Shown in pieces: positions 5,478 through 63,587 of a stretch of 64,000 nt of DNA. Position 1 is the stretch's first letter; each line of letters opens with the position of its first letter. Below the pieces are notes generated by a model. The model worked only from the letters and a program-made list of their open reading frames with translations. It ran no database searches and was not told where the DNA came from. The stretch is from Bacteroidales bacterium (GTDB taxonomy: Bacteria > Bacteroidota > Bacteroidia > Bacteroidales > UBA3663), in NCBI GenBank assembly GCA_045576355.1, contig JAZNGG010000015.1, positions 9,123 through 73,122 of the forward strand, given 5' to 3'. Position numbers and translations under genes: made by a program.

Positions 5478-5650
5478 GATGGGGACTTCGTCCTGCTATG
5501 GCTGATGGCGATGGCGCGATTGGTTTAAGGGTACCTTTTAGGCATTAAGGGCATCAAGGCCTTAAAATTATAATCCTCTGCCATCAGCCATAGCAGGACG
5601 CAACCCCTAAACCCTTAAACCCCTAAACCAACAAACCAACAAACCAAACG
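5478..5650. repeat. Mosaic intergenic repeat locus R1
   Basis: A perfect 20-bp inverted repeat, GTCCTGCTATGGCTGATGGC (5490-5509) and GCCATCAGCCATAGCAGGAC (5580-5599), surrounds a 70-bp spacer. It is followed by the heptamer run CCCTAAA/CCAACAA (5603-5648). The locus begins 3 nt after the upstream stop codon. Confidence 0.85.
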
Positions 5651-5670
5651 TTAAAAAACCTTTCCCCCTC

Positions 5671-5701
5671 TTGACATTGGCTTTCGGATGTTATATCTTT
5701 G
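5671..5701 (+). promoter_or_regulatory. Bacteroides-type promoter of candidate sRNA A
   Basis: TTGACA at 5671-5676 and a perfect -7 box TAtcTTTG at 5694-5701. The whole 45-bp block is conserved in copy B. Confidence 0.5.
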
Positions 5702-5707
5702 TAAAGT

Positions 5708-5787
5708 TTAAGTTGAAAGATAGATGAAGCGTTGAGACGTTGCAGGGCAGATCGCCCTACATGTTTCGATGCTTCATCGCTTTTTTG
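5708..5787 (+). ncRNA. Candidate small RNA A (about 80 nt) ending in a long hairpin plus U-tract
   Basis: Hairpin at 5723-5778 (GATGAAGC...GCTTCATC outer stem, GGGC/GCCC apical stem) followed by GCTTTTTTG. Several G-U pairs exist only on the + strand. A paralog lies at 19255-19356 (-). Confidence 0.4.
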
Positions 5788-5878
5788 TCTCCCTGCACTC
5801 GGCCGTTCGGATGAAAATTCAATGGTCCGAAAGAGTCCATTCATAGAGTTTATTTGCTTAAAAGGCCGAGGCTTTTTA

Positions 5879-6032
5879 CTTCACGAGCGTACCCTCATTA
5901 TTCAACGAGCGTACCCTCGTTGGTCGATGAGCGTACGCTCGTTGTGCAACGAGGCTACGCGTGTTAAAAATTAGCCCCGCCGCGTTACACTAAATAAGCC
6001 AATGAAAATCTCATGAGAGCCAATGCGTGAAA
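5879..6032. repeat. 22-bp-period minisatellite, array A
   Basis: Units are CTTCACGAGCGTACCCTCATTA, TTCAACGAGCGTACCCTCGTTG, GTCGATGAGCGTACGCTCGTTG and TGCAACGAGGCTACGCGTGTTA (5879-5966). About 3 decayed units follow. Confidence 0.85.
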
Positions 6033-6224
6033 ATTTTCTCTTTTTCAACTTTTAGCTCAGACTTTACTATGATTTTCACTTTATGTTCAGATCCCTATTC
6101 AAAAAATCATTAAGAGGCATCCATTGTGTTAGGCTTCATACCGAACTATATGCAAAATCGGATAAAATGATATACGAAGATGGCATTTACATGTTAATTT
6201 TCTAAAAAACGATAGCTCAGGGCT

Positions 6225-6492
6225 GCGAGTTGAGAAGAGTACAGAGAACAGAGTACAGAGAACAGAGAAGCCATAGCGGACGAAGTCCCTTATTTGGTTT
6301 AGAAGTTTAAAGGTTTAGAAGTTTATTTTTTCAACCCTTCAACCCTTCAACCACTAAACCAACCATAGCCATCAGCCATAGCAGGACGCAACCCCTAAAC
6401 CACTAAACCACTAAACCACTCAACCACTCAACCCCTAAACCAACCATAGCCATAGCCATCAGCCATAGCAGGGCGCAGCCCCTAAACCCCTC
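6225..6492. repeat. Mosaic intergenic repeat locus R2
   Basis: A GA-rich run is followed by CCATAGCGGACGAAGTCC, then GGTTTAGAAGTTTA twice, CAACCCTT twice, CCATAGCC/CCATCAGCC units and ACCACTAA/ACCACTCA runs. The same words recur at R3, R7 and R8. Confidence 0.85.
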
Positions 6493-6594
6493 AACCCAAA
6501 AAGAGCGGCATGCCGACATAAAATCGACACACCGCCCCGTCCCACGCTGTTAGGATATTATCTATACAAGACCCTCAAAGAGGTCCCGCACAAA

Positions 6595-10267: not shown

Positions 10268-10380
10268 GAAAAAATAAACGAAAGTAACAAATATTTAGAA
10301 ACATAAACAACAATTATACACCACTTTGACCCTATTTTACTCCTTAAACCTCAAATCGGCAATTGGAGCAAAAGAATATT

Positions 10381-10548
10381 AAGTAAGAAAAAGAGCAAAG
10401 AGGAAACTGAAAACAAAGCCATAATCTATCGCCATCAGCCATAGCGGGCGCAGCCACAAGCCCTCGCCATAGCAGGACGAAGTCCCCCTGCCATAGCCAT
10501 AGCCATAAGCCATAGCGGGCGCAGCCCTTTAAACCCCTCAACCACCCC
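10381..10548. repeat. Mosaic intergenic repeat locus R3
   Basis: A GA-rich tract is followed by CCATCAGCCATAGCGGGCGCAGCC, CCATAGCAGGACGAAGTCC, CCATAGCC twice, CCATAGCGGGCGCAGCCC and finally TTAAACCCCTCAACC. Confidence 0.85.
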
Positions 10549-10690
10549 GGGTGTAATCCACAATTATTCCACCTATGAGAGAATTTCCACCTCCTATAAA
10601 AGGCGAAGCAACGGCTGAATCACTCAGACGTTGCCCCTAATTGTAGCTTATATACCATGAATTTACTGAAAAACAAATTATTTACGGGTG

Positions 10691-15913: not shown

Positions 15914-16170
15914 AGGGCTGATGGCTGCAATGGCTCATAGTGAGGGCTTATGGGGCTGCGCCCGCTATGGCTGATGGCGATAGCTTATAGCTTTGTTTTC
16001 ACCTTTCTCCTTTCCCCTTTCAGTTTTCTCCTTTCCTCTTATCAAGGCGCAGCCCCTTATCACGCGCAACCAACGACCAAAGAGAGTAACCCTTCAACCC
16101 CTCAGCCCCAAAACCCCTCAACTCCTAAAACCCTCAACTCCTAAACCAACAAACCAATAAACCAATAAAA
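15914..16170. repeat. Mosaic intergenic repeat locus R4 (two head-to-head modules)
   Basis: GGCTGATGGC/CTATGGC units and GGGGCTGCGCCC are followed by a CT-rich tract. Then come GGCGCAGCCCC, CGCGCAACCAACGACCAAAGAG and CCCTCAAC/CCTAAACC/CAACAAAC heptamer runs. Confidence 0.85.
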
Positions 16171-16225
16171 AAACTAAATTCTTGAATTTTTTTTGAGAAA
16201 CTCTTGCTATATTGTACAAAAGCAT

Positions 16226-17291: not shown

Positions 17292-17333
17292 AAATAAACG
17301 GCAGCATCATCGAGATGCTGCCGTTTATTTTAT
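17292..17333 (+). terminator. Intrinsic terminator after rbr (17-bp stem plus T-run)
   Basis: AAATAAACGGCAGCATC, loop atcga, GATGCTGCCGTTTATTT, followed by TAT. Confidence 0.8.
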
Positions 17334-17334
17334 T

Positions 17335-17570
17335 GGTTTAGGAGTTGAGGGGTTGAGGAGTTTAGGGGCTGCGCCCCACTATGGCTGGGACTTCGTCCAC
17401 TATGACTGATGGCGATGGCTGGGGCAAAGCCCACTATGGCTGATGGCGATGGCTATGGCTTTCCACTTTTCGCTGTTCTCTTTTCTCTTGGAATATGGCG
17501 TTGTTTTCATCTTTCCTCTTTCCTCTTTTCTCTTTCCTCTGTACTGTCATATTTTTTTCTCACACAGAAA
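17335..17570. repeat. Mosaic intergenic repeat locus R5 (reverse orientation)
   Basis: GGTTTAGG/GTTGAGG heptamers, GGGGCTGCGCCCC, GGGACTTCGTCC, GGGGCAAAGCCC and CTATGGCTGATGGCGATGGC units, then a CT-rich tract and GTACTGTCATATTTTTTTCTCACACAGAA. It abuts the fmt stop codon. Confidence 0.85.
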
Positions 17571-18699: not shown

Positions 18700-18895
18700 T
18701 TAGGGGGTGCAGCCCTTAAAGCCGCTAAACGCATGACCGAAGGGAATAGATAACGCACGCTATAGCTTGCGTTTCCCCTCCGGAAGTGAAGCTCCGGGAA
18801 GCAGTTGCGCCCTGCGAGATCTGTGCGCTCGTGCAAAAAAATGGCGTACTTTTTAAAGAGAAAAAGTGAAAGCCATCTGCCATCGCCATTAGTTA
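18700..18895. repeat. Mosaic repeat locus R6a
   Basis: GGGGGTGCAGCCCTTAAAGCC, ACGCATGACCGAAGGGAATAGATAACGCACG, the hairpin ACGCA...TGCGT, GTGCAAAAAAATGGCGTAC, a GA tract and GCCATCTGCCATCGCC. These are related to modules at 19590-19760. Confidence 0.75.
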
Positions 18896-18991: not shown

Positions 18992-19190
18992 TTCACTCAT
19001 CGGCTCGCGTAAGATCACGGATCGGCACGTGTTGTTTCACGCGTCGAGTCTCGTTACATAACGCGTCGAGTCTCGTTGCATAACACGTCGGCATGTGTTT
19101 AAACACGCGTAGCCTTGTTGCATGATTCGCGTAGCCTTGTTATGTCATGAGGGTAGCCTTGTTACGTCATGAGGGTAGCCACTTCAAACA
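18992..19190. repeat. 22-bp-period minisatellite, array B (about 8-9 units)
   Basis: The + strand units include TCACGCGTCGAGTCTCGTTACA, TAACGCGTCGAGTCTCGTTGCA, TAACACGTCGGCATGTGTTTAA, ACACGCGTAGCCTTGTTGCATG, ATTCGCGTAGCCTTGTTATGTC, ATGAGGGTAGCCTTGTTACGTC and ATGAGGGTAGCCACTTCAAACA. Confidence 0.85.
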
Positions 19191-19254
19191 CTTAAACCTA
19201 TGTTTTGTCTCACTCGAACCTATGAATTTTAGTGGGATAACAGAGTGTGAAGAC

Positions 19255-19356
19255 AAAAAAAAGATGAAGCATCGAAACATGGAGGGCGATTCACCCTATG
19301 ACGTCTCAACGCTTCATCGTTTACTACCCCTAAACTTGGGGTAATCACCAAAAATA
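19255..19356 (-). ncRNA. Candidate small RNA B (about 100 nt), paralog of candidate A
   Basis: Read on the minus strand: hairpin 19318-19263 (GATGAAGCGTTGAGACGTCATAGGGTGAATCGCCCTCCATGTTTCGATGCTTCATC) followed by T8 (19262-19255). The 5' segment differs from copy A. Confidence 0.4.
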
Positions 19357-19361
19357 TAATA

Positions 19362-19392
19362 CAAAGATACAACAATCAAAAGCCGATGTCAA
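19362..19392 (-). promoter_or_regulatory. Bacteroides-type promoter of candidate sRNA B
   Basis: Read on the minus strand: TTGACA (19392-19387) and TAtcTTTG (19369-19362). The block is nearly identical to 5671-5701. Confidence 0.5.
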
Positions 19393-19575
19393 GAGGGGAA
19401 AAGTTTTTTTAACAATTCGGTGCTGCGGCGAAAGAACAGAGAACAGAGGAAAGAGGAAAGATGAAAGGAGAAAGGAGAAAACGGATAGCCATAGTGGACG
19501 AAGTCCCTAAGCCATCTGCCATCGCCAATAGCCATAGTGGGCTTTGCCCCAGCAATAGCGGAGAATGATTTGGTA

Positions 19576-19728
19576 TTTTTGCACACAGAAGACACAGAAC
19601 CCGCGTAGCACACGACCGAAGGAAATAACACACAGAGCGCACATGTTTCGCAGTGCTTCCCTTCCGGATGGTAAACGCAAGCGTAAGCGTGCGTTTTCTG
19701 TGTATTTTATGTATTCTGTGTGCAAAAA
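19576..19728. repeat. 153-bp unit bounded by 15-bp inverted repeats
   Basis: TTTTTGCACACAGAA (19576-19590) pairs with TTCTGTGTGCAAAAA (19714-19728). An internal hairpin ACGCAAGC-GTAA-GCGTGCGT is present. Confidence 0.75.
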
Positions 19729-19833
19729 AAATGACAGTACAAAGAAAAGAGAAAAGAGAAAAGAGGAAAGGAGAAAACAAAGCAATCTGCCATAGTGGGC
19801 TTTGCCCCAGCAATAGCGGAGAATGACTTGGTA

Positions 19834-20018
19834 TTTTTGCACACAGAAAACACAGAACCCGCGTAGCCCACGACCAAAGGGAGTAAGACACAGACCACGC
19901 GTAGCACACGACCGAAGGAAATAACACACAGAGCGCACATGTTTCGCAGTGCTTCCATTCCGGATGGTAAACGCAAGCGTAAGCGTGCGTTTTCTGTGTA
20001 TTTTGTGTATTCTGTGTG
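19834..20018. repeat. Second inverted-repeat-bounded unit (with a roughly 30-bp internal duplication)
   Basis: TTTTTGCACACAGAA (19834-19848) pairs with TTCTGTGTG (20010-20018). The CGCGTAGCxCACGACCxAAG word is duplicated inside. Confidence 0.7.
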
Positions 20019-20400
20019 AGACAAAAACTGTAGAAGACGGCTTTAAGGGCTAAAAAAGGCAAAAAGGGCAAAAAGGCATCCAACCAACCGCATAGTAATA
20101 ACAAGAGTACAGAGAAAAGTGAAAGGAGAAAGGAGAAAGGAGAAAACAAAGCCATCTGCCATCGCCATCAGCCATAGTGGGGCGCAGCCCCTAAACTCCT
20201 CAACCCCTAAACCCCTAAACCAAACAGGGCGCAGCCCTAAACTCCTCAACCAACCACAAATCATTTTCAGTAAATATACACATTTTATGCGCCATAAATA
20301 TAAATTTCATACGTTTTCTGTATCTTTTTCCCATTATTTTGCTATTTTACCAAAAATTCTGCTTATTTTTGCGCCATTGATTAAAAAACTTTATGATGCT

Positions 20401-31917: not shown

Positions 31918-31998
31918 CGTTTTTATCTTGGAAAAAAGAAGTTTCTCTCTCTCTTTTCTCTCCCATGAGAGCCTTTCTCTCACCGTTCTGTCAGCCTA

Positions 31999-32086
31999 TA
32001 CACATTACACGGCAGCGTCATACACGTTACACGGCGGCGTCGTGCAAGTCACACGGCGGCATCATGCAAATACATTTCCGAAACAT
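31999..32086. repeat. 22-bp-period minisatellite, array D (different unit sequence)
   Basis: Units are TACACATTACACGGCAGCGTCA, TACACGTTACACGGCGGCGTCG, TGCAAGTCACACGGCGGCATCA and a decayed TGCAAATACATTTCCGAAACAT. The array is preceded by a CT-rich tract. Confidence 0.8.
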
Positions 32087-32302
32087 CTTTATTTAGAGCC
32101 ACTTACCACAATACGTTTTCTCCACACTTCTTCACAAACAAAGAAAAAAGAGACTGCATCAAGTAATCTTGACACAGCCTCAATGTTCTCGTTCATAACG
32201 ATCAATACGTCTATCAAATTCCAATCTGACAACCTCTGACATCAAATCATGTGGTTATAATCAAATTAGGATTATAGTATTCGGAGAGTTTTAGAGAAAA
32301 CT

Positions 32303-47551: not shown

Positions 47552-47559
47552 CAAAGATA
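47552..47559 (-). promoter_or_regulatory. -7 promoter box (TAtcTTTG) for the coiled-coil/zapA operon
   Basis: The reverse complement of CAAAGATA, about 30 nt upstream of the ATG at 47521. Confidence 0.5.
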
Positions 47560-47815
47560 TAATTTATTTTTGATATGACAATTCTTTAGTGCAACTTTTT
47601 TCATTTTCACTATTAAAAAAGCCCCTTTCACCCTGATAACAGAACGTTTTTATTATCATAACCTACCGGTGTCCGACAAAACTTTTCTCTGTAATATAAA
47701 GGTTATTTCGTGCACTTAATTTTTTGAGGCACCTCATTTCTCCTCTTTTTTCACCCTCTCTGATACGCGAAAAAAAGTTATTTTTGGGTTTAAGCTGAAG
47801 AGCTGTGACCTTCTG

Positions 47816-47947
47816 CTTCACGAGGGTACGCTCATGACGCAACGAGGGTACGCTCGTGAGGCAATGAGGCTACGCTCGTGATACAACGAGGGTACGCTCG
47901 TGAGGCGATGAGGCTACGCGCGTTATTCAACGGGACTCTTGACAAAT
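47816..47947. repeat. 22-bp-period minisatellite, array C (cleanest copy)
   Basis: Units are CTTCACGAGGGTACGCTCATGA, CGCAACGAGGGTACGCTCGTGA, GGCAATGAGGCTACGCTCGTGA, TACAACGAGGGTACGCTCGTGA, GGCGATGAGGCTACGCGCGTTA and one decayed unit. Confidence 0.85.
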
Positions 47948-55048: not shown

Positions 55049-57883
55049 ATGAAACATTTATTACAACATTTAGCCGTTCTCATCGCGGCTTTGTTTATCG
55101 GAGTGGGGGCACTGCATGCTGACATGACCGAAAAAACACTATTGGCCAATGGCAACACCAGTAACGAACCCAATGCCGGTACGAGCTATAGCATCAGTGG
55201 CACGTATGTAGCCGGAGGTGGCAATGTCAATTGCCCTCTCATCAGCGATAAAGGAGTGAAACTCCGCTGCCAGCGTCAAGCCGGAGACCTCAATAATACG
55301 ATCCGAATCGACGTAAACGAGGGCTTTTTGATTACCGGTGTACAGGGACAGGCAGTCTCCAATTATGACACCCCATGCACCTTGACTGCAGTCTATGTGG
55401 ATGGTGACACAGAGCATAATCTCCTCACGACCTCCTGCACATTCCCCGCTAAGGGAGAGACTGCTACAAAGTTTGAGGTGAATGGCTTTGAAGCAAAAAG
55501 TTATGTCGATCTTGTGACAGACGGAGGTAGTGCTCAGGTCAATTTCGGAGCGATCATCTCTTATAAGCTCCCGGCCATGCCCGATCCCGACGCTAATGAC
55601 ATTCTCTATCTTTACAACTCCTCTTATGCCACATACTGCGGCATCAATAAGGACCCCCTCTATGCAGCCATAGCTGATCATCTTTCCACCTCGGGCCTCG
55701 ACCTGGTGGCTTATGACATGAACGGCAGAAGTGCTTCAGATCTGGATCAAGTAGCACTCGCCCGTGCCATCATCTCCACAGAGGCTAATGCCGGTTCTAA
55801 CGAACTCGGTGTAGCTCTCGCTGAAGCCGCCACCCAAGTGCCGATGCTCAATCTGAAAACCTTCTACTTCAGCAGCGGAAGATGGGGATGGGGCACAGCA
55901 GCCAATCCCTCTGCTCCCACACCAACCATCACTATTGGAGCTCCGGGCCTGGCACTTTTTGAAGGCCTTCTTATGACAGATGAAGGGCAAGCAGATCTCT
56001 TCACTCCTACCACTCTGAGTAATCTGATACAGGGAGCCTCCATCTCTGGCAACGATGTGGAGACTTTGGCAGAGGTGGAAAACTATCAAGCCGTATTCTC
56101 TCGTGGAGACAACTTCATCCACATCGGCTACTCTTATGACGACATCTCTGAGATCAATGGCAATGGCAAACAATTGGTACTCAACGCACTCGATCTTTTG
56201 CTGGCAGGTAAGGGATTTAAAACACCGAGGACACAGCCCCGCCTGGTTCACATGACGATCGATGGAGCCGCCGTCTCCTCTGCATTTTTAGGACGGCTCT
56301 CCGGAGGGGAAACCACAGAGACTCTTTATGCCCTTCCCGATGCATTTCCGGTCGTAGCAGCCGAAGCTACAGCCGGTGGCACAGTAGAAATACAACAAGC
56401 CACAGCCGCAACCCCAAAAGCAGTTATCACTCTGAAGGATGCTACCGGGACCGAGTTGAAGACCTATGTCATCCACTTCAATATCAAGGTAAAAGAAGCA
56501 GCCGAGAAACATAAATTTGACTTCGTAGTAGGAGTTGACGGAGATATCAACGAGGCTTTTGCCGCCATCGAACGCTTCTCCGGATCCGGTCGTTATCACG
56601 TCTTCATCCCCGATGGGACACACCGCCTCACCGGTAATACAACAATCAACATCGAAGAGAGCCGCACATGGAATGACTCGACCGGTGTGGACAATCGTAA
56701 TTATGTCGGACAACAATATAACAATGCAATGACATGGATCAAAAAGAGTAATATTTCACTGGTCGGTCAGAGCACATCCGGTACAATCCTCTATAATGAG
56801 CCACTTTTCTGCGGCATCTCATACACCTCTACGGTCGAACTCCGCAACAGCGCTAAAGACTGTTACCTGCAGGATCTCACCCTCAAAAACAATTATGCTT
56901 ATGGCAGACACGATCGCGGTGTGGCAGTAGCATTCTACGATCGCGGCACCCGCTCCATCCTCAAAAATGTCAAACTTTGGAGCAACCAAGACACATATAC
57001 CTCTGCCGGCGATCGTTGCTATTATGAGACCTCAGAAATCTGCGGCACGGTGGACTTTATCTGTGGCAGCGGCAATATGTGGTTTGAGCGGTGTAATCTC
57101 ACCATCAACAATCGCTCGGGCAACGTCATCACTGCTCCTCGCACTACCGAATCTCAGGCTTGGGGTTATGTCTTCAATCACTGTGTCATAGACCGTGCAT
57201 CGGGTGCCTCCTCTGTCAAAGATGGCAACTGGACATTAGGCCGTCCTTGGGGAGCTTCTCCTGCTGCCACTTATCTGCACACGACAATGAAGGTAAAACC
57301 AAGCAATGCAGCTTGGACTAAAATGACCAACGATCTGGTATGCCGATTCCACGAATTTGGCAGTGTGGACGTGAACGGCAATGCCATCAGCCTCTCCTCT
57401 CGATCCATCTCAGCTTGCAATCCCGCAGAAGGCAGTGACAACCCGGTACTTAGTGCAGCAGAAGCAGCACTCTATACGGTGGAAAAAGTCTTAGGTGGAG
57501 AGGATGGATATGATCCGACAGAACTGACAAGTCAATGTAATGCTCCGGCTGTCACAGCAGAGGGTAACCTATTGACATGGGACGATGATGTTTATGCCTC
57601 TTGCTATGTGATTTTCCTCGATGGTGAATATCTGGCTAACCAGGTAGAAACCACTTTCCGTGCCACACTACCCGGCAAATATACCGTGCGAGCAGCCAAT
57701 GGACGAGGTGGTCTCGGAGCGGCATCAGCTCCCGTAGAGATTGCAACCAGTGGTGTCGATAACATCTCTGCGACAACTCTTACTGATGATAATAAACTCT
57801 ATGACCTGAGTGGTCGTCCAGTGCAAAAACACTCTCGCCCGGGCATTTATATCCAAGGCAATAAGACCATTATAAAAAACTAA
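55049..57883 (+). CDS. Pectinesterase (CE8) with a large N-terminal region and a T9SS sorting domain
   Basis: Start trimmed to MKHLLQHLAVLIAALFIGVGALHA. CE8 motifs are WSNQDTY, GTVDFICGSG and LGRPWG. The C-terminus is ...LYDLSGRPVQKHSRPGIYIQGNKTIIKN. Confidence 0.85.
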   Translation: MKHLLQHLAVLIAALFIGVGALHADMTEKTLLANGNTSNEPNAGTSYSISGTYVAGGGNVNCPLISDKGVKLRCQRQAGDLNNTIRIDVNEGFLITGVQGQAVSNYDTPCTLTAVYVDGDTEHNLLTTSCTFPAKGETATKFEVNGFEAKSYVDLVTDGGSAQVNFGAIISYKLPAMPDPDANDILYLYNSSYATYCGINKDPLYAAIADHLSTSGLDLVAYDMNGRSASDLDQVALARAIISTEANAGSNELGVALAEAATQVPMLNLKTFYFSSGRWGWGTAANPSAPTPTITIGAPGLALFEGLLMTDEGQADLFTPTTLSNLIQGASISGNDVETLAEVENYQAVFSRGDNFIHIGYSYDDISEINGNGKQLVLNALDLLLAGKGFKTPRTQPRLVHMTIDGAAVSSAFLGRLSGGETTETLYALPDAFPVVAAEATAGGTVEIQQATAATPKAVITLKDATGTELKTYVIHFNIKVKEAAEKHKFDFVVGVDGDINEAFAAIERFSGSGRYHVFIPDGTHRLTGNTTINIEESRTWNDSTGVDNRNYVGQQYNNAMTWIKKSNISLVGQSTSGTILYNEPLFCGISYTSTVELRNSAKDCYLQDLTLKNNYAYGRHDRGVAVAFYDRGTRSILKNVKLWSNQDTYTSAGDRCYYETSEICGTVDFICGSGNMWFERCNLTINNRSGNVITAPRTTESQAWGYVFNHCVIDRASGASSVKDGNWTLGRPWGASPAATYLHTTMKVKPSNAAWTKMTNDLVCRFHEFGSVDVNGNAISLSSRSISACNPAEGSDNPVLSAAEAALYTVEKVLGGEDGYDPTELTSQCNAPAVTAEGNLLTWDDDVYASCYVIFLDGEYLANQVETTFRATLPGKYTVRAANGRGGLGAASAPVEIATSGVDNISATTLTDDNKLYDLSGRPVQKHSRPGIYIQGNKTIIKN

Positions 57884-57960: not shown

Positions 57961-58614
57961 ATTACTTTATCCCCATCGATCATTAGCCCCAAAAGACGAT
58001 ATTAAGCTATTGCTGTGTCTGTTTTCAGACGATAGTGCACACCTTCTCACCCGTCTTACGCTAATCGGACAACTCCTGTTGGATCTATGTTGCCTTATGC
58101 TCTATATATTAATCAGTAAATAAAACTATATTCATCCCTTAACATAGATAATAAGAACGCTTTAAATAAGCATGAAGAACTCCAATTATTTAATAAATAC
58201 AATATTGCGGCGGATTATACATAACATTGTGGAGCATTATCCCAAATATTGTGTATAATTGTACTGCGTATTGTGTACATTTTTATGAAGGCATTTTTTA
58301 TGGGTTTGTTTGCCTGTCCTAATACTTTTAATAAGCGTTCCTATCTACTTTCTTGTGCTATTCTTTTTGGAGTATGTCCCGTTATGTTTATAAACACCTC
58401 TGCACCAAGTATGACGACCTCAGGAGGGCAAGCAAATGCGCACTTACCGACAGACGTTCATTGGGAAAGAGCCCTAAAACCGGATTCTGACGATAGCTTA
58501 TAAAGTAGAACCAGCCATAATATCAAGCAAACCTTAATCTTCAGAGCTGCGTCTTCGAGAGGCAACTTGATGGTCTAAAGACCGACTTGGGGTTAATCAC
58601 ATTATTACATAGCT

Positions 58615-61971: not shown

Positions 61972-62163
61972 TTAGAGAAAAGGAAAACTGAAAGGTGAAA
62001 ACTGAAAACAAAGCCAAAAGCCATAGCGGACGAAGTCCTTGTTTAGTTTAGAAGTTTATTTTTTAGCACGCGAAGCCCATGACCAAATAAAGATGAAAAC
62101 TGAAAACAAAACCATCAGCCATAGCAAGGCGCAGTCCCCTAAACCACTAAACCAACACTGCCA
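61972..62163. repeat. Mosaic intergenic repeat locus R7
   Basis: A GA tract, CCATAGCGGACGAAGTCC, TTGTTTAGTTTAGAAGTTTATTTTTT, CGCGAAGCCCATGACCAAATAAAG, a second GA tract, CCATCAGCCATAGCAAGGCGCAGTCCCC and CTAAACCACTAAACC. Confidence 0.85.
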
Positions 62164-63198
62164 TCAGCCAATATTCCACTTTGCCACTGCATCAAAGAAA
62201 GCTTCTATATTGGCAGCAGATACTCCGGGAGGAATATCACAACCCGAGGAGATAACAAAATTGCGATATGTCTGAGTAGCATCCAAGAGTTTCAGAGTCT
62301 CCTTACGCACCTCGTCCGGACTTGCCTGTTGGAAAATACTAACAGGATCAATATTACCCATCACTAAGACATCTGAGGGACACTCCTGCAAAGCAGCTGT
62401 CATATCGATCTTATTACCGAAATGATAAGCCGCAGCACCTGAAGCCACCATGGCCGAAGTGCATTGTCCTGTATTGCCACAATTATGAAGGATTACCATA
62501 AAATGCTCATCCTGAACACGCTCCACGATTTCCTTGACATAAACCGAGGAGAAGAGGCGGCAATCATCGTCTGAAAGGAGTCCTGCTGCCGGCTCAGCCA
62601 TCATAACCCCCTGCACGCCACAGGCTTTCAACGCCAAGCAGTAATCGATCAGAAATGCCGTACACTTCTCCAGCAACCGGCGCGCAGCAGCCGGATTGAC
62701 ATAGATCAGCATCATGATCTCAGACATGTCATAAAGTCGGCCGGCCAAAGAGTAGGGTCCGATACAACCCGCCAAGACCGGACGATCTGTGATGCTCCGA
62801 GAGAGGAGCAGATTGGCACGCAGATATTCGGGTACGCGACCGGCAGAAAGCGCCGGAACCTGCAGACGATCGATGTCTCGCTCGTTGTGGAGCAGCCTGC
62901 CGACGACACTCGGCACTTCATCTTCCGGAAAGACCACCTCTGCGCCAAAAGCCTCAGCCTCCACCGTCAGATCCATAATCACCGTGGCAGCTGCACCCGG
63001 ATAACGATGAGCGACAGCCTCAACGGCTTCGGCATGAACACGACCATCGGTCACCGCACGACACACAGTCTGTCCGATCATTTCGATTCCCGGATGAGTC
63101 ATAATCGGGCAAGCCACCCGATTATGTGACACCATAATCTCATTTGCCCAATGGGACATATCACACTGCTTCATTGTATAACTCTTTAATTCTTTCAC
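62164..63198 (-). CDS. Uroporphyrinogen decarboxylase-family methyltransferase (MtaA/CmuA-like)
   Basis: 344 aa with a URO-D fold. It is typical of corrinoid-dependent methyltransferase systems. Confidence 0.75.
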   Translation of the reverse strand: MKELKSYTMKQCDMSHWANEIMVSHNRVACPIMTHPGIEMIGQTVCRAVTDGRVHAEAVEAVAHRYPGAAATVIMDLTVEAEAFGAEVVFPEDEVPSVVGRLLHNERDIDRLQVPALSAGRVPEYLRANLLLSRSITDRPVLAGCIGPYSLAGRLYDMSEIMMLIYVNPAAARRLLEKCTAFLIDYCLALKACGVQGVMMAEPAAGLLSDDDCRLFSSVYVKEIVERVQDEHFMVILHNCGNTGQCTSAMVASGAAAYHFGNKIDMTAALQECPSDVLVMGNIDPVSIFQQASPDEVRKETLKLLDATQTYRNFVISSGCDIPPGVSAANIEAFFDAVAKWNIG

Positions 63199-63321: not shown

Positions 63322-63562
63322 CAAAGAAAAGTAAAGAGCAAAGAGAAGCCATCAACCATTGCGGACGAAGTCCTTGTTTGGTTTAAAAGTTTAAAGGTTT
63401 AGAAGTTTATTTTTTCAACCCTTCAACCACTCAAACCTTCAACCCGCGAAGCCCACGACCAAATAAAGAGCAAAGATGAAAGAGCAAAGCCATAGCCATC
63501 GCCATCAGCCATAGCAGGGCGCAGCCCTTTAAACCCCTCAACCCTTCAACCACTCAACCAAA
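63322..63562. repeat. Mosaic intergenic repeat locus R8
   Basis: Same module order as R7 and R2. A GA tract, GCGGACGAAGTCC, TTGTTTGGTTTAAAAGTTTAAAGGTTTAGAAGTTTATTTTTT, CAACCCTTCAACC, CGCGAAGCCCACGACCAAATAAAG, a second GA tract, CCATAGCC/CCATCGCC/CCATCAGCCATAGCAGGGCGCAGCCC and heptamers. Confidence 0.85.
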
Positions 63563-63587
63563 ACAAAACCAATTACTACTATACACG

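Follow-up and report, generated by a model that had tools for sequence, protein, structure and literature searches.

The closest described counterparts of the repeats reported here are the BrickBuilt elements of Porphyromonas gingivalis, which consist of 23-nt repeats joined without spacers, are accompanied by a leader and a tail, lie in intergenic regions, and differ in unit number between strains (PMC4596501). Their leader has promoter activity, and copies without the leader or the tail also exist (PMC4596501). According to the same study, 22-nt tandem repeats had been reported earlier in P. gingivalis strain W83, and a default BLASTn search gave no match to BrickBuilt outside P. gingivalis, with homologues found only in P. 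gulae (PMC4596501). We found no description in the literature of a general class of 22-bp repeats in Bacteroidales beyond BrickBuilt. Repeats of similar length are known from replicons and transposons: the iterons of plasmids R6K and pPS10 are 22 bp long, the sopC site of F is composed of 43-bp repeats with a 16-bp palindrome in each, and the ends of Tn7 and Mu carry multiple 22-bp transposase sites.

Four arrays of 22-bp units (A to D; Table 1) are present in the 64-kb window (i.e., the whole stretch of DNA that we analyzed). Directly observed were the 22-bp period, a homology between A and B that extends to their flanks, the variation in length by whole units between strains, the intergenic position, and the lack of associated genes. 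We consider it moderately likely that the arrays form the minisatellite core of a noncoding repeat family of the same kind as BrickBuilt, dispersed over intergenic sites and with a core that evolves by slippage. They constitute a new sequence family of the repeat type known from P. gingivalis and not a new kind of system.

The window (G+C content, 47.8%) contains housekeeping genes and genes for plant-glycan degradation (i.e., those for GH43, GH31, pectate lyases, pectinesterase, and a hybrid two-component regulator, together with fmt, tyrS, trmD, sdhA, tatAC, zapA, and rny), and its promoters are of the Bacteroidetes TTG/TAnnTTTG type. In a search of 185,579 species genomes, a collection without the source species itself, the best matches of its RNase Y were uncultured Bacteroidales metagenome-assembled genomes (MAGs; 81 to 86% identity). 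The arrays belong to the chromosome of an uncultured gut Bacteroidales. ORF maps place all four in intergenic regions amid the housekeeping and glycan degradation genes. No tRNA gene was detected in the window, and Rfam 15 gave no match at the gathering score over its whole length; in evalue mode, the leader hairpin and the arrays gave chance hairpin matches only, far below gathering. Genes for a transposase, Rep, ParAB, or RAYT were not found in the window, and no Y1 transposase was present among 30 ORFs scanned.

Table 1. Coordinates of the 22-bp arrays and of the features associated with or compared to them. Positions refer to the window unless a locus is named.
Feature	Position	Strand	Description	Evidence
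Array A	5879-5966	.	Four 22-bp units, near-palindrome CA-ACGAG-CGTACC-CTCGT-TG	TRF, lag-22 identity, folds
Array B	18992-19190	-	About nine 22-bp units, three subtypes, nondyad	TRF, lag-22 identity, folds
Array C	47816-47947	.	Five units and a degenerate sixth, near-palindromes ACGAG-GGTACG-CTCGT	TRF, folds, ORFs
Array D	31998-32075	.	3 to 3.5 units of ACACGGCGGCGTCATGCAAGTC, nondyad	TRF, lag-22 identity, folds
Promoter-like site, element A	5671-5701	+	TTGACA-17-TATCTT(TG); kept in B	Consensus scan, 10/12 matches
Leader hairpin, element A	5723-5789	+	18-bp stem with four G.U pairs, apical stem, then T-run	Fold z, -6.6; terminator scan
Leader, element B	19251-19392	-	TTGACAT at 19392-19386, TATCTTTG at 19369-19362, hairpin at 19318-19263, T8	Fold z, -9.3
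Tail, element A	5967-6047	+	Nonperiodic, ends in GCCAATGCGTGAAAATTTT	Homologous to the B tail
Intrinsic terminator of the lipoprotein gene upstream of D	32150-32181	-	14-bp stem and TTTTTTCTTT, detected by terminator scan; ~75 nt before array D	
Short-tandem-repeat blocks	5480-5650, 6230-6500, 10380-10550, 15940-16180, 17320-17570, 18855-18892, 19430-19560, 19730-19820, 20050-20240, 61980-62170, 63330-63570			
22-bp arrays in other Bacteroidales	L015:5830-6100, L029:7500-8000, L067:5628-5715, L072:5551-5615, L087:5707-5775, L017:7327-7412			

A sequence-only reading of this DNA had described three arrays of back-to-back 22-bp units, and the spacer-less organization that it claimed is borne out by TRF, by a scan of self-identity at different lags, and by shuffling. 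TRF called period-22 repeats with 0% indels at 5883-5953, at 19039-19090 and 19109-19180, and at 47820-47923 (the last, array C, with a 44-bp superperiod as well), and a further one in array D (31998-32069; period 22; 0% indels). When lags of 5 to 60 were scanned across the window, lag 22 yielded three regions in which self-identity over 66 nt reached 72% or more, and the only other lags yielding any region were 16 (a microsatellite) and 44 (i.e., 2 x 22). The lag-22 identities were 0.73 for A (5879-5966), 0.66 for B, 0.70 for C, and 0.69 for D, compared with a shuffle maximum of 0.40 to 0.48 (2,000 shuffles; best of 16 lags, 15 to 30). A two-unit array pattern had 5 matches in the window versus 0 in 100 shuffles. 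The arrays are genuine features, well outside what chance would produce. The limits given in the earlier reading stand for B and C but not for A, which had been extended to 6032 and ends at ~5966: positions 5945-6032 show no periodicity (lag-22 identity, 0.24), and array A therefore comprises four units, not seven. Array D had been missed.

Neighboring units of array B are pairwise identical, as had been described. The unit of array D is distantly similar to one of the unit types of array B, and no core motif common to A/C, B, and D was found. Strong divergence of the units between arrays together with near-identity between neighbors inside one array represents concerted evolution.

For comparison between strains, we used contigs from the assemblies of other sequencing runs that encode identical TatC, ZapB, or Fmt proteins and whose flanks are ~99% or more identical. 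Upstream of fmt, array B of one contig (L090) is longer by a single 22-bp unit (CGACGTGTTATGCAACGAGACT); over ~970 aligned bases, this contig otherwise differs from the window by one SNP and two T-run lengths. In array C, L098 is without the last 22-bp unit, and L001 and L093 have the same unit count as the window. The arrays are VNTRs that change by whole units, with differences seen in B and C. The proposal in the sequence-only reading that the arrays grow through local duplications without leaving the 22-bp phase is supported by these one-unit differences, and the comparison of unit number between strains that the reading had suggested as a check came out positive, with a gain in B and a loss in C. 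Single-base and conversion-like variants within units were also found: in array C, the first unit's state is reproduced by an ACGAG-to-ACGCG change in L002, L006, L097, and L100, and another variant, AGCCTCG, is present in L099.

Most contigs break inside array C, with those of seven samples ending there, as would be expected of a repeat that causes an assembly graph to branch. The loci of arrays B and C are constant across the samples seen. In one contig (L096, Logan DRR773917; positions 1-28), all similarity to the window is lost ~20 nt past the zapB-side end of array C (window, ~47795-47800); the 28 nt available of the alternative sequence gave no match in the window, and this junction could represent an array-less allele or a rearranged allele. 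No exact matches were found to the proteins encoded next to A and D. The nearest genomes identified by RNase Y were considered as empty-site controls and rejected as too distant, with ZapA/ZapB ~35 to 47% identical and tatC nonadjacent.

Arrays A and B are each part of a composite element of 400 to 440 bp, and the two copies (A, 5650-6047, +; B, 19413-18975, -) align throughout (alignment and nhmmer). C and D are bare arrays. Each composite element consists, in order, of a promoter, an 18-bp hairpin with a T-run, a weakly conserved spacer of ~75 to 90 nt, the 22-bp array, and a tail. The promoter common to A and B is TTGACAT-N16-TATCTTTG, and that of element A fits the Bacteroidetes -33 TTG/-7 TAnnTTTG type. 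The arms of the 18-bp hairpin are 100% identical between A and B; given its four G.U pairs, the hairpin is fully paired on the transcribed strand only. The apical stem shows a C-G to U.G change between the copies, and in the leader of element B, an insertion of 22 nt gives rise to an additional 5' hairpin ahead of the 18-bp hairpin. The tails of A and B both end in GCCRATGNGTGAAAATTTT, and their homology was detected by BLAST (6008-6047 versus 19015-18975; 83%) and nhmmer (E = 1.7e-6). The tail sequence GCCRATGNGTGAAAATTT of A/B resembles the array end GCCGATGGGCGTGAAAATTT at locus L015 of another Bacteroidales genome, possibly by chance.

Judged from sequence features, the leader looks like a small-RNA gene in its anatomy (i.e., a short single-stranded 5' end that leads into a terminator hairpin), and the module (5671-5789, +; 19392-19251, -) is a candidate multicopy small RNA. 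The FopS RNAs of Bacteroides have the same build as the A/B leader (PMC11697453). The leader shares with the FopS/GibS small RNAs a sigma-ABfr-type promoter and occurrence in several copies, but FopS genes are not described with tandem repeats after them (PMC11697453), and no Rfam family (FopS/GibS included if in release 15) matches the leader at or near thresholds. A covariance model of the leader hairpin recovered only the two copies in the window and generic terminator hairpins from 678 kb, and the hairpin pattern had 0 matches in viral contigs.

The sequence-only reading also placed a dyad with 7-bp arms in each unit. This applies to A and C, whose units are near-palindromes of the form CA-ACGAG-SGTACS-CTCGT-TG (complementary positions, 7-9/10), although the perfect arms are 5 bp long (ACGAG/CTCGT) and reach 7 bp in some units only; it does not apply to B and D, in which 4 to 6 of 8 to 11 positions are complementary. 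Similarly, A and C fold much better than their shuffles (z-scores, -7.4/-7.1 for A and -3.2/-4.5 for C), whereas B and D fold no better than theirs (-1.4 to +0.7; D, +0.5 and -0.1). Since the folds of B and D are indistinguishable from those of shuffles, the property common to all four arrays is the period, not the palindrome. The near-palindrome of A/C is a trait of that unit lineage and not a requirement of the family.

On the + strand, A and C both start with CTTCACGAG and both end with GAGGCTACGCG(T/C)GTTA. The reported swap of centers between the inner units of A (CGTACC) and C (GGTACG) is literally correct. Two substitutions, one at each of the symmetric S positions in ACGAG-SGTACS-CTCGT, account for it, and the intermediate with the center CGTACG, the perfect palindrome GAGCGTACGCTC, is unit 3 of array A. 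With a unit so close to a 20-bp palindrome, a strand flip is about as good a fit: BLAST of A versus C gave 85.7% in the reversed and 79.3% in the direct orientation, and the degenerate unit pattern matches both strands at identical places. For the orientation of C relative to A, nhmmer favors +, BLAST of the inner units favors the reverse, and the flank alignments are weak both ways.

The folding of A and C, in which adjacent units pair into long stems, would suit a string of hairpins in RNA or single-stranded DNA that serves as a terminator, a 3'-end stabilizer, or a REP/BIME-like palindrome cluster. Every array lies 3' of a transcription unit, and array C, which is located between the tatC stop (48090, -) and the zapB/zapA/rny promoter (~47552-47581, -), lies 143 nt past that stop, with no canonical terminator found in the spacer. 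We nevertheless regard such a hairpin string as quite improbable. B and D do not fold beyond chance, and strong intrinsic terminators precede arrays A, B, and D by 60 to 90 nt (~90 nt for the leader terminator of A and ~73 nt for that of B); at D, the TATCTTTG box of the next gene follows ~85 nt past the array. Behind these terminators, A, B, and D are probably poorly transcribed, and with three of the four arrays in this position, an RNA-level role is argued against. Nor is there compensatory change, since the arm variants ATGAG and CTCAT never occur together in one unit, or a strand preference, since these variants, which produce a wobble when read on one strand and a mismatch when read on the opposite one, are evenly split between the two strands.

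The arrays resemble the REP/BIME sequences of Enterobacteria and Pseudomonas (extragenic imperfect palindromes of ~20 to 35 nt, clustered 3' of genes) in their position and, for A and C, in their hairpin potential. However, the units are direct head-to-tail repeats with a fixed 22-bp period, unlike the alternating units and variable linkers of REP/BIME, and B and D are not palindromic; neither a RAYT gene in the window nor a GTAG-type 5' tetranucleotide before the stem was seen. REP/BIME membership was rejected on the direct orientation, the restriction of palindromes to A and C, and the lack of a Y1 transposase among the 30 ORFs.

The same terminators, by making transcription of A, B, and D improbable, favor a DNA-level over an RNA-level role, as would be expected of phased protein-binding platforms (i.e., iteron-, centromere-, or operator-like arrays), in which a dimeric protein would occupy the 16-bp ACGAG-N6-CTCGT and act cooperatively at the 22-bp spacing. 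The exact unit spacing found by TRF and the 16- to 20-bp near-palindromes of A and C, with conserved half-sites and a variable 6-bp spacer, are in line with such platforms, and the arrays share with plasmid iterons and sopC-type centromeres direct repeats ~22 bp (or 43 to 44 bp) apart with palindromic subsites. We consider this explanation unlikely. Palindrome and half-sites are absent from B and D, which leaves the family without one protein site shared by all arrays; the position of the arrays relative to promoters is inconsistent; and unit number and sequence differ between nearly identical strains. In contrast to iterons and centromeres, the arrays are chromosomal, are found at four places within 64 kb, lack a neighboring rep, par, or regulator gene, and have no common core. 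An iteron origin or a partition centromere was rejected on the same grounds (four loci, no rep or par gene in the window, and no common core). The two functional readings proposed from the sequence, a same-face binding array and a hairpin string, lack support in the form proposed: either would require a feature common to all arrays, and the dyad is absent from B and D. Both are further weighed against by the strong divergence of units between arrays, by the terminators upstream of A, B, and D, and by the absence of rep, par, and transposase genes nearby. At 10.5 bp per turn, 22 bp make 2.1 turns, and each unit would be rotated by ~34 degrees relative to the one before.

The leader-array-tail anatomy of A and B, which recalls that of the BrickBuilt MITE, would also make sense if the arrays were remnants of transposon or MITE ends, with the 22-bp units as multiple transposase-binding sites mobilized in trans from elsewhere in the genome, as at the ends of Tn7 and Mu. 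Several 22-bp arrays in other Bacteroidales are closed by an inverted copy of the unit (L015, L029, L067/L072, and L087), a further point in favor of transposon ends. We hold this origin to be very improbable: neither terminal inverted repeats nor target-site duplications were found at the bounds of A or B, no transposase gene is present in the window, and the location of the arrays does not change among the samples seen. The IS5-like terminal inverted repeats of BrickBuilt (GAGACCTTTGCA/TGCAAAGGTCTC) occur at chance level only (5 matches at <=2 mismatches versus 5.8 expected), with none at the element ends. A generic MITE was likewise rejected as an assignment (no terminal inverted repeats, no target-site duplication, and constant loci across samples, with one divergent junction, that of L096, available over 28 nt), as was a CRISPR array, since the units abut without spacers and the window has no cas genes.

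The BrickBuilt-like minisatellite reading, which we favor, accommodates both the composite and the bare arrays. As in BrickBuilt, the repeats are found in a member of the Bacteroidales, are 22 to 23 nt long, head to tail and spacer-less, and are strictly intergenic, with a unit number that varies between strains; some copies have a nonrepetitive leader and tail and others are bare; the leader has promoter elements; and the family is species restricted and without an Rfam match. The combination of intergenic position, spacer-less units, and strain variation in unit number that characterizes BrickBuilt was thus found here as well. The differences are a unit of 22 nt instead of 23 nt and of apparently unrelated sequence, arrays of 3 to 9 units instead of up to 23, and a leader that forms a compact promoter, hairpin, and T-run module like a small-RNA gene. 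Membership in BrickBuilt itself was rejected on the 22-nt period and the absence of IS5-type terminal repeats.

Under this reading, an ancestral 22-bp unit would have been copied to several intergenic sites and, at A and B, would have become part of the 400- to 440-bp element with its promoter, small-RNA-like terminator hairpin, and tail. Each array would then evolve separately through replication slippage or unequal exchange, with whole units gained or lost, a process that would account for the exact phase, the near-identical neighbors, the drift between arrays, and the differences in unit number between strains. Because the bounds of A and B have neither terminal inverted repeats nor target-site duplications, mobility of the element is not demonstrated. 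The small number of copies visible in the 64 kb (two complete composites and two arrays of the bare type) and the absence of the family from the genome and metagenome collections also count against this reading. We infer that the arrays have no dedicated cellular function; a function would also be consistent with their persistence at constant loci in several samples.

Other repeats occur in the same intergenic regions. Many of the longer ones contain blocks of short tandem repeats (Table 1) whose order recurs: heptamers rich in purines (AGAGAAC/GAAAGGA) come first and are followed by hexamers (GCCATMG), by a small GC hairpin (GGGGCGCAGCCCC/CAGGACGC), and then by octamers (AACCCCTA/AACCACTA). 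Inverted copies of the blocks produce long hairpins directly past stop codons (e.g., 5482-5509 with 5580-5607), and repeats of the ACCCCTMAAACC type are also present at related MAG loci (L010 and L012). An element of ~150 to 190 nt bounded by 24-nt inverted repeats (TTTTTGCACACAGAA...TTCTGTGTGCAAAAA) is present as two tandem copies that are 81% identical (19576-19731 and 19834-20027), with its core again upstream of fmt (18748-18814) and a repeat of 38 bp inside it (19850-19932). The element, which outperforms shuffled sequence in folding (z = -3.5 and -4.1) and has no Rfam match, is a candidate MITE or structured RNA. TRF also called a weak period-22 repeat at 58201-58253 (unit AATATTGTGGAGCATTATACAA; 2.4 copies with 74% matches), in the gap that separates the ORFs with ends at 57883 and 58748.

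The two-unit array pattern had 0 matches in the 185,579 species genomes, and a more degenerate version gave 2 chance matches only in JGI metagenomes, both coding-like and nontandem, and 0 matches in viral contigs. A TRF survey of 80 rny-centered loci from other Bacteroidales (704 kb) revealed period-22 arrays of unrelated units in L015, L017, L029, L046, L067/L072, L087, and a few others; a period-22 array in L047 may be coding. Among periods of 19 to 26, with multiples of three excluded, period 22 accounted for 7 to 8 of 11 to 12 independent arrays (binomial, ~2e-4 to 6e-4), and in a lag scan of these loci, 22 ranked first, with small numbers. Those arrays, from Parabacteroides-, Prevotella-, and Tannerellaceae-like MAGs, are often located just 3' of rny, between convergent genes. 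Locus L029 additionally contains a large palindrome built of 12-bp TTAATTAACG-type repeats, and the unit of L017 (TGAGCATAGCACCTCA) resembles a unit of array C (GAGCGTAGCCTCA).

We regard the overrepresentation of period 22 in Bacteroidales loci as a lead rather than a result. Simple inheritance of one unit does not explain arrays of unrelated units with the same period elsewhere in the order. A period of 22 or 23 in intergenic arrays is found in the window, in the 23-nt and 22-nt repeats of P. gingivalis, and at the Prevotella, Parabacteroides, and Tannerellaceae loci named above. It is conceivable, though doubtful, that what matters is the fixed length of ~22 bp rather than the sequence, through a lineage-wide mechanism that sets this length. 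The length could be set by a host protein that binds DNA in a two-turn phase or by a replication or repair process that makes and amplifies 22-bp duplications. If the preference for 22 bp across Bacteroidales is true genome-wide, it raises the mechanistic question of how the length is set.

The arrays described here break short-read assemblies, and they are usable as VNTR markers for strain tracking in metagenomes. Minisatellites of the BrickBuilt type are not peculiar to Porphyromonas but are also present, with an unrelated unit, in an uncultured gut lineage that degrades plant polysaccharides.
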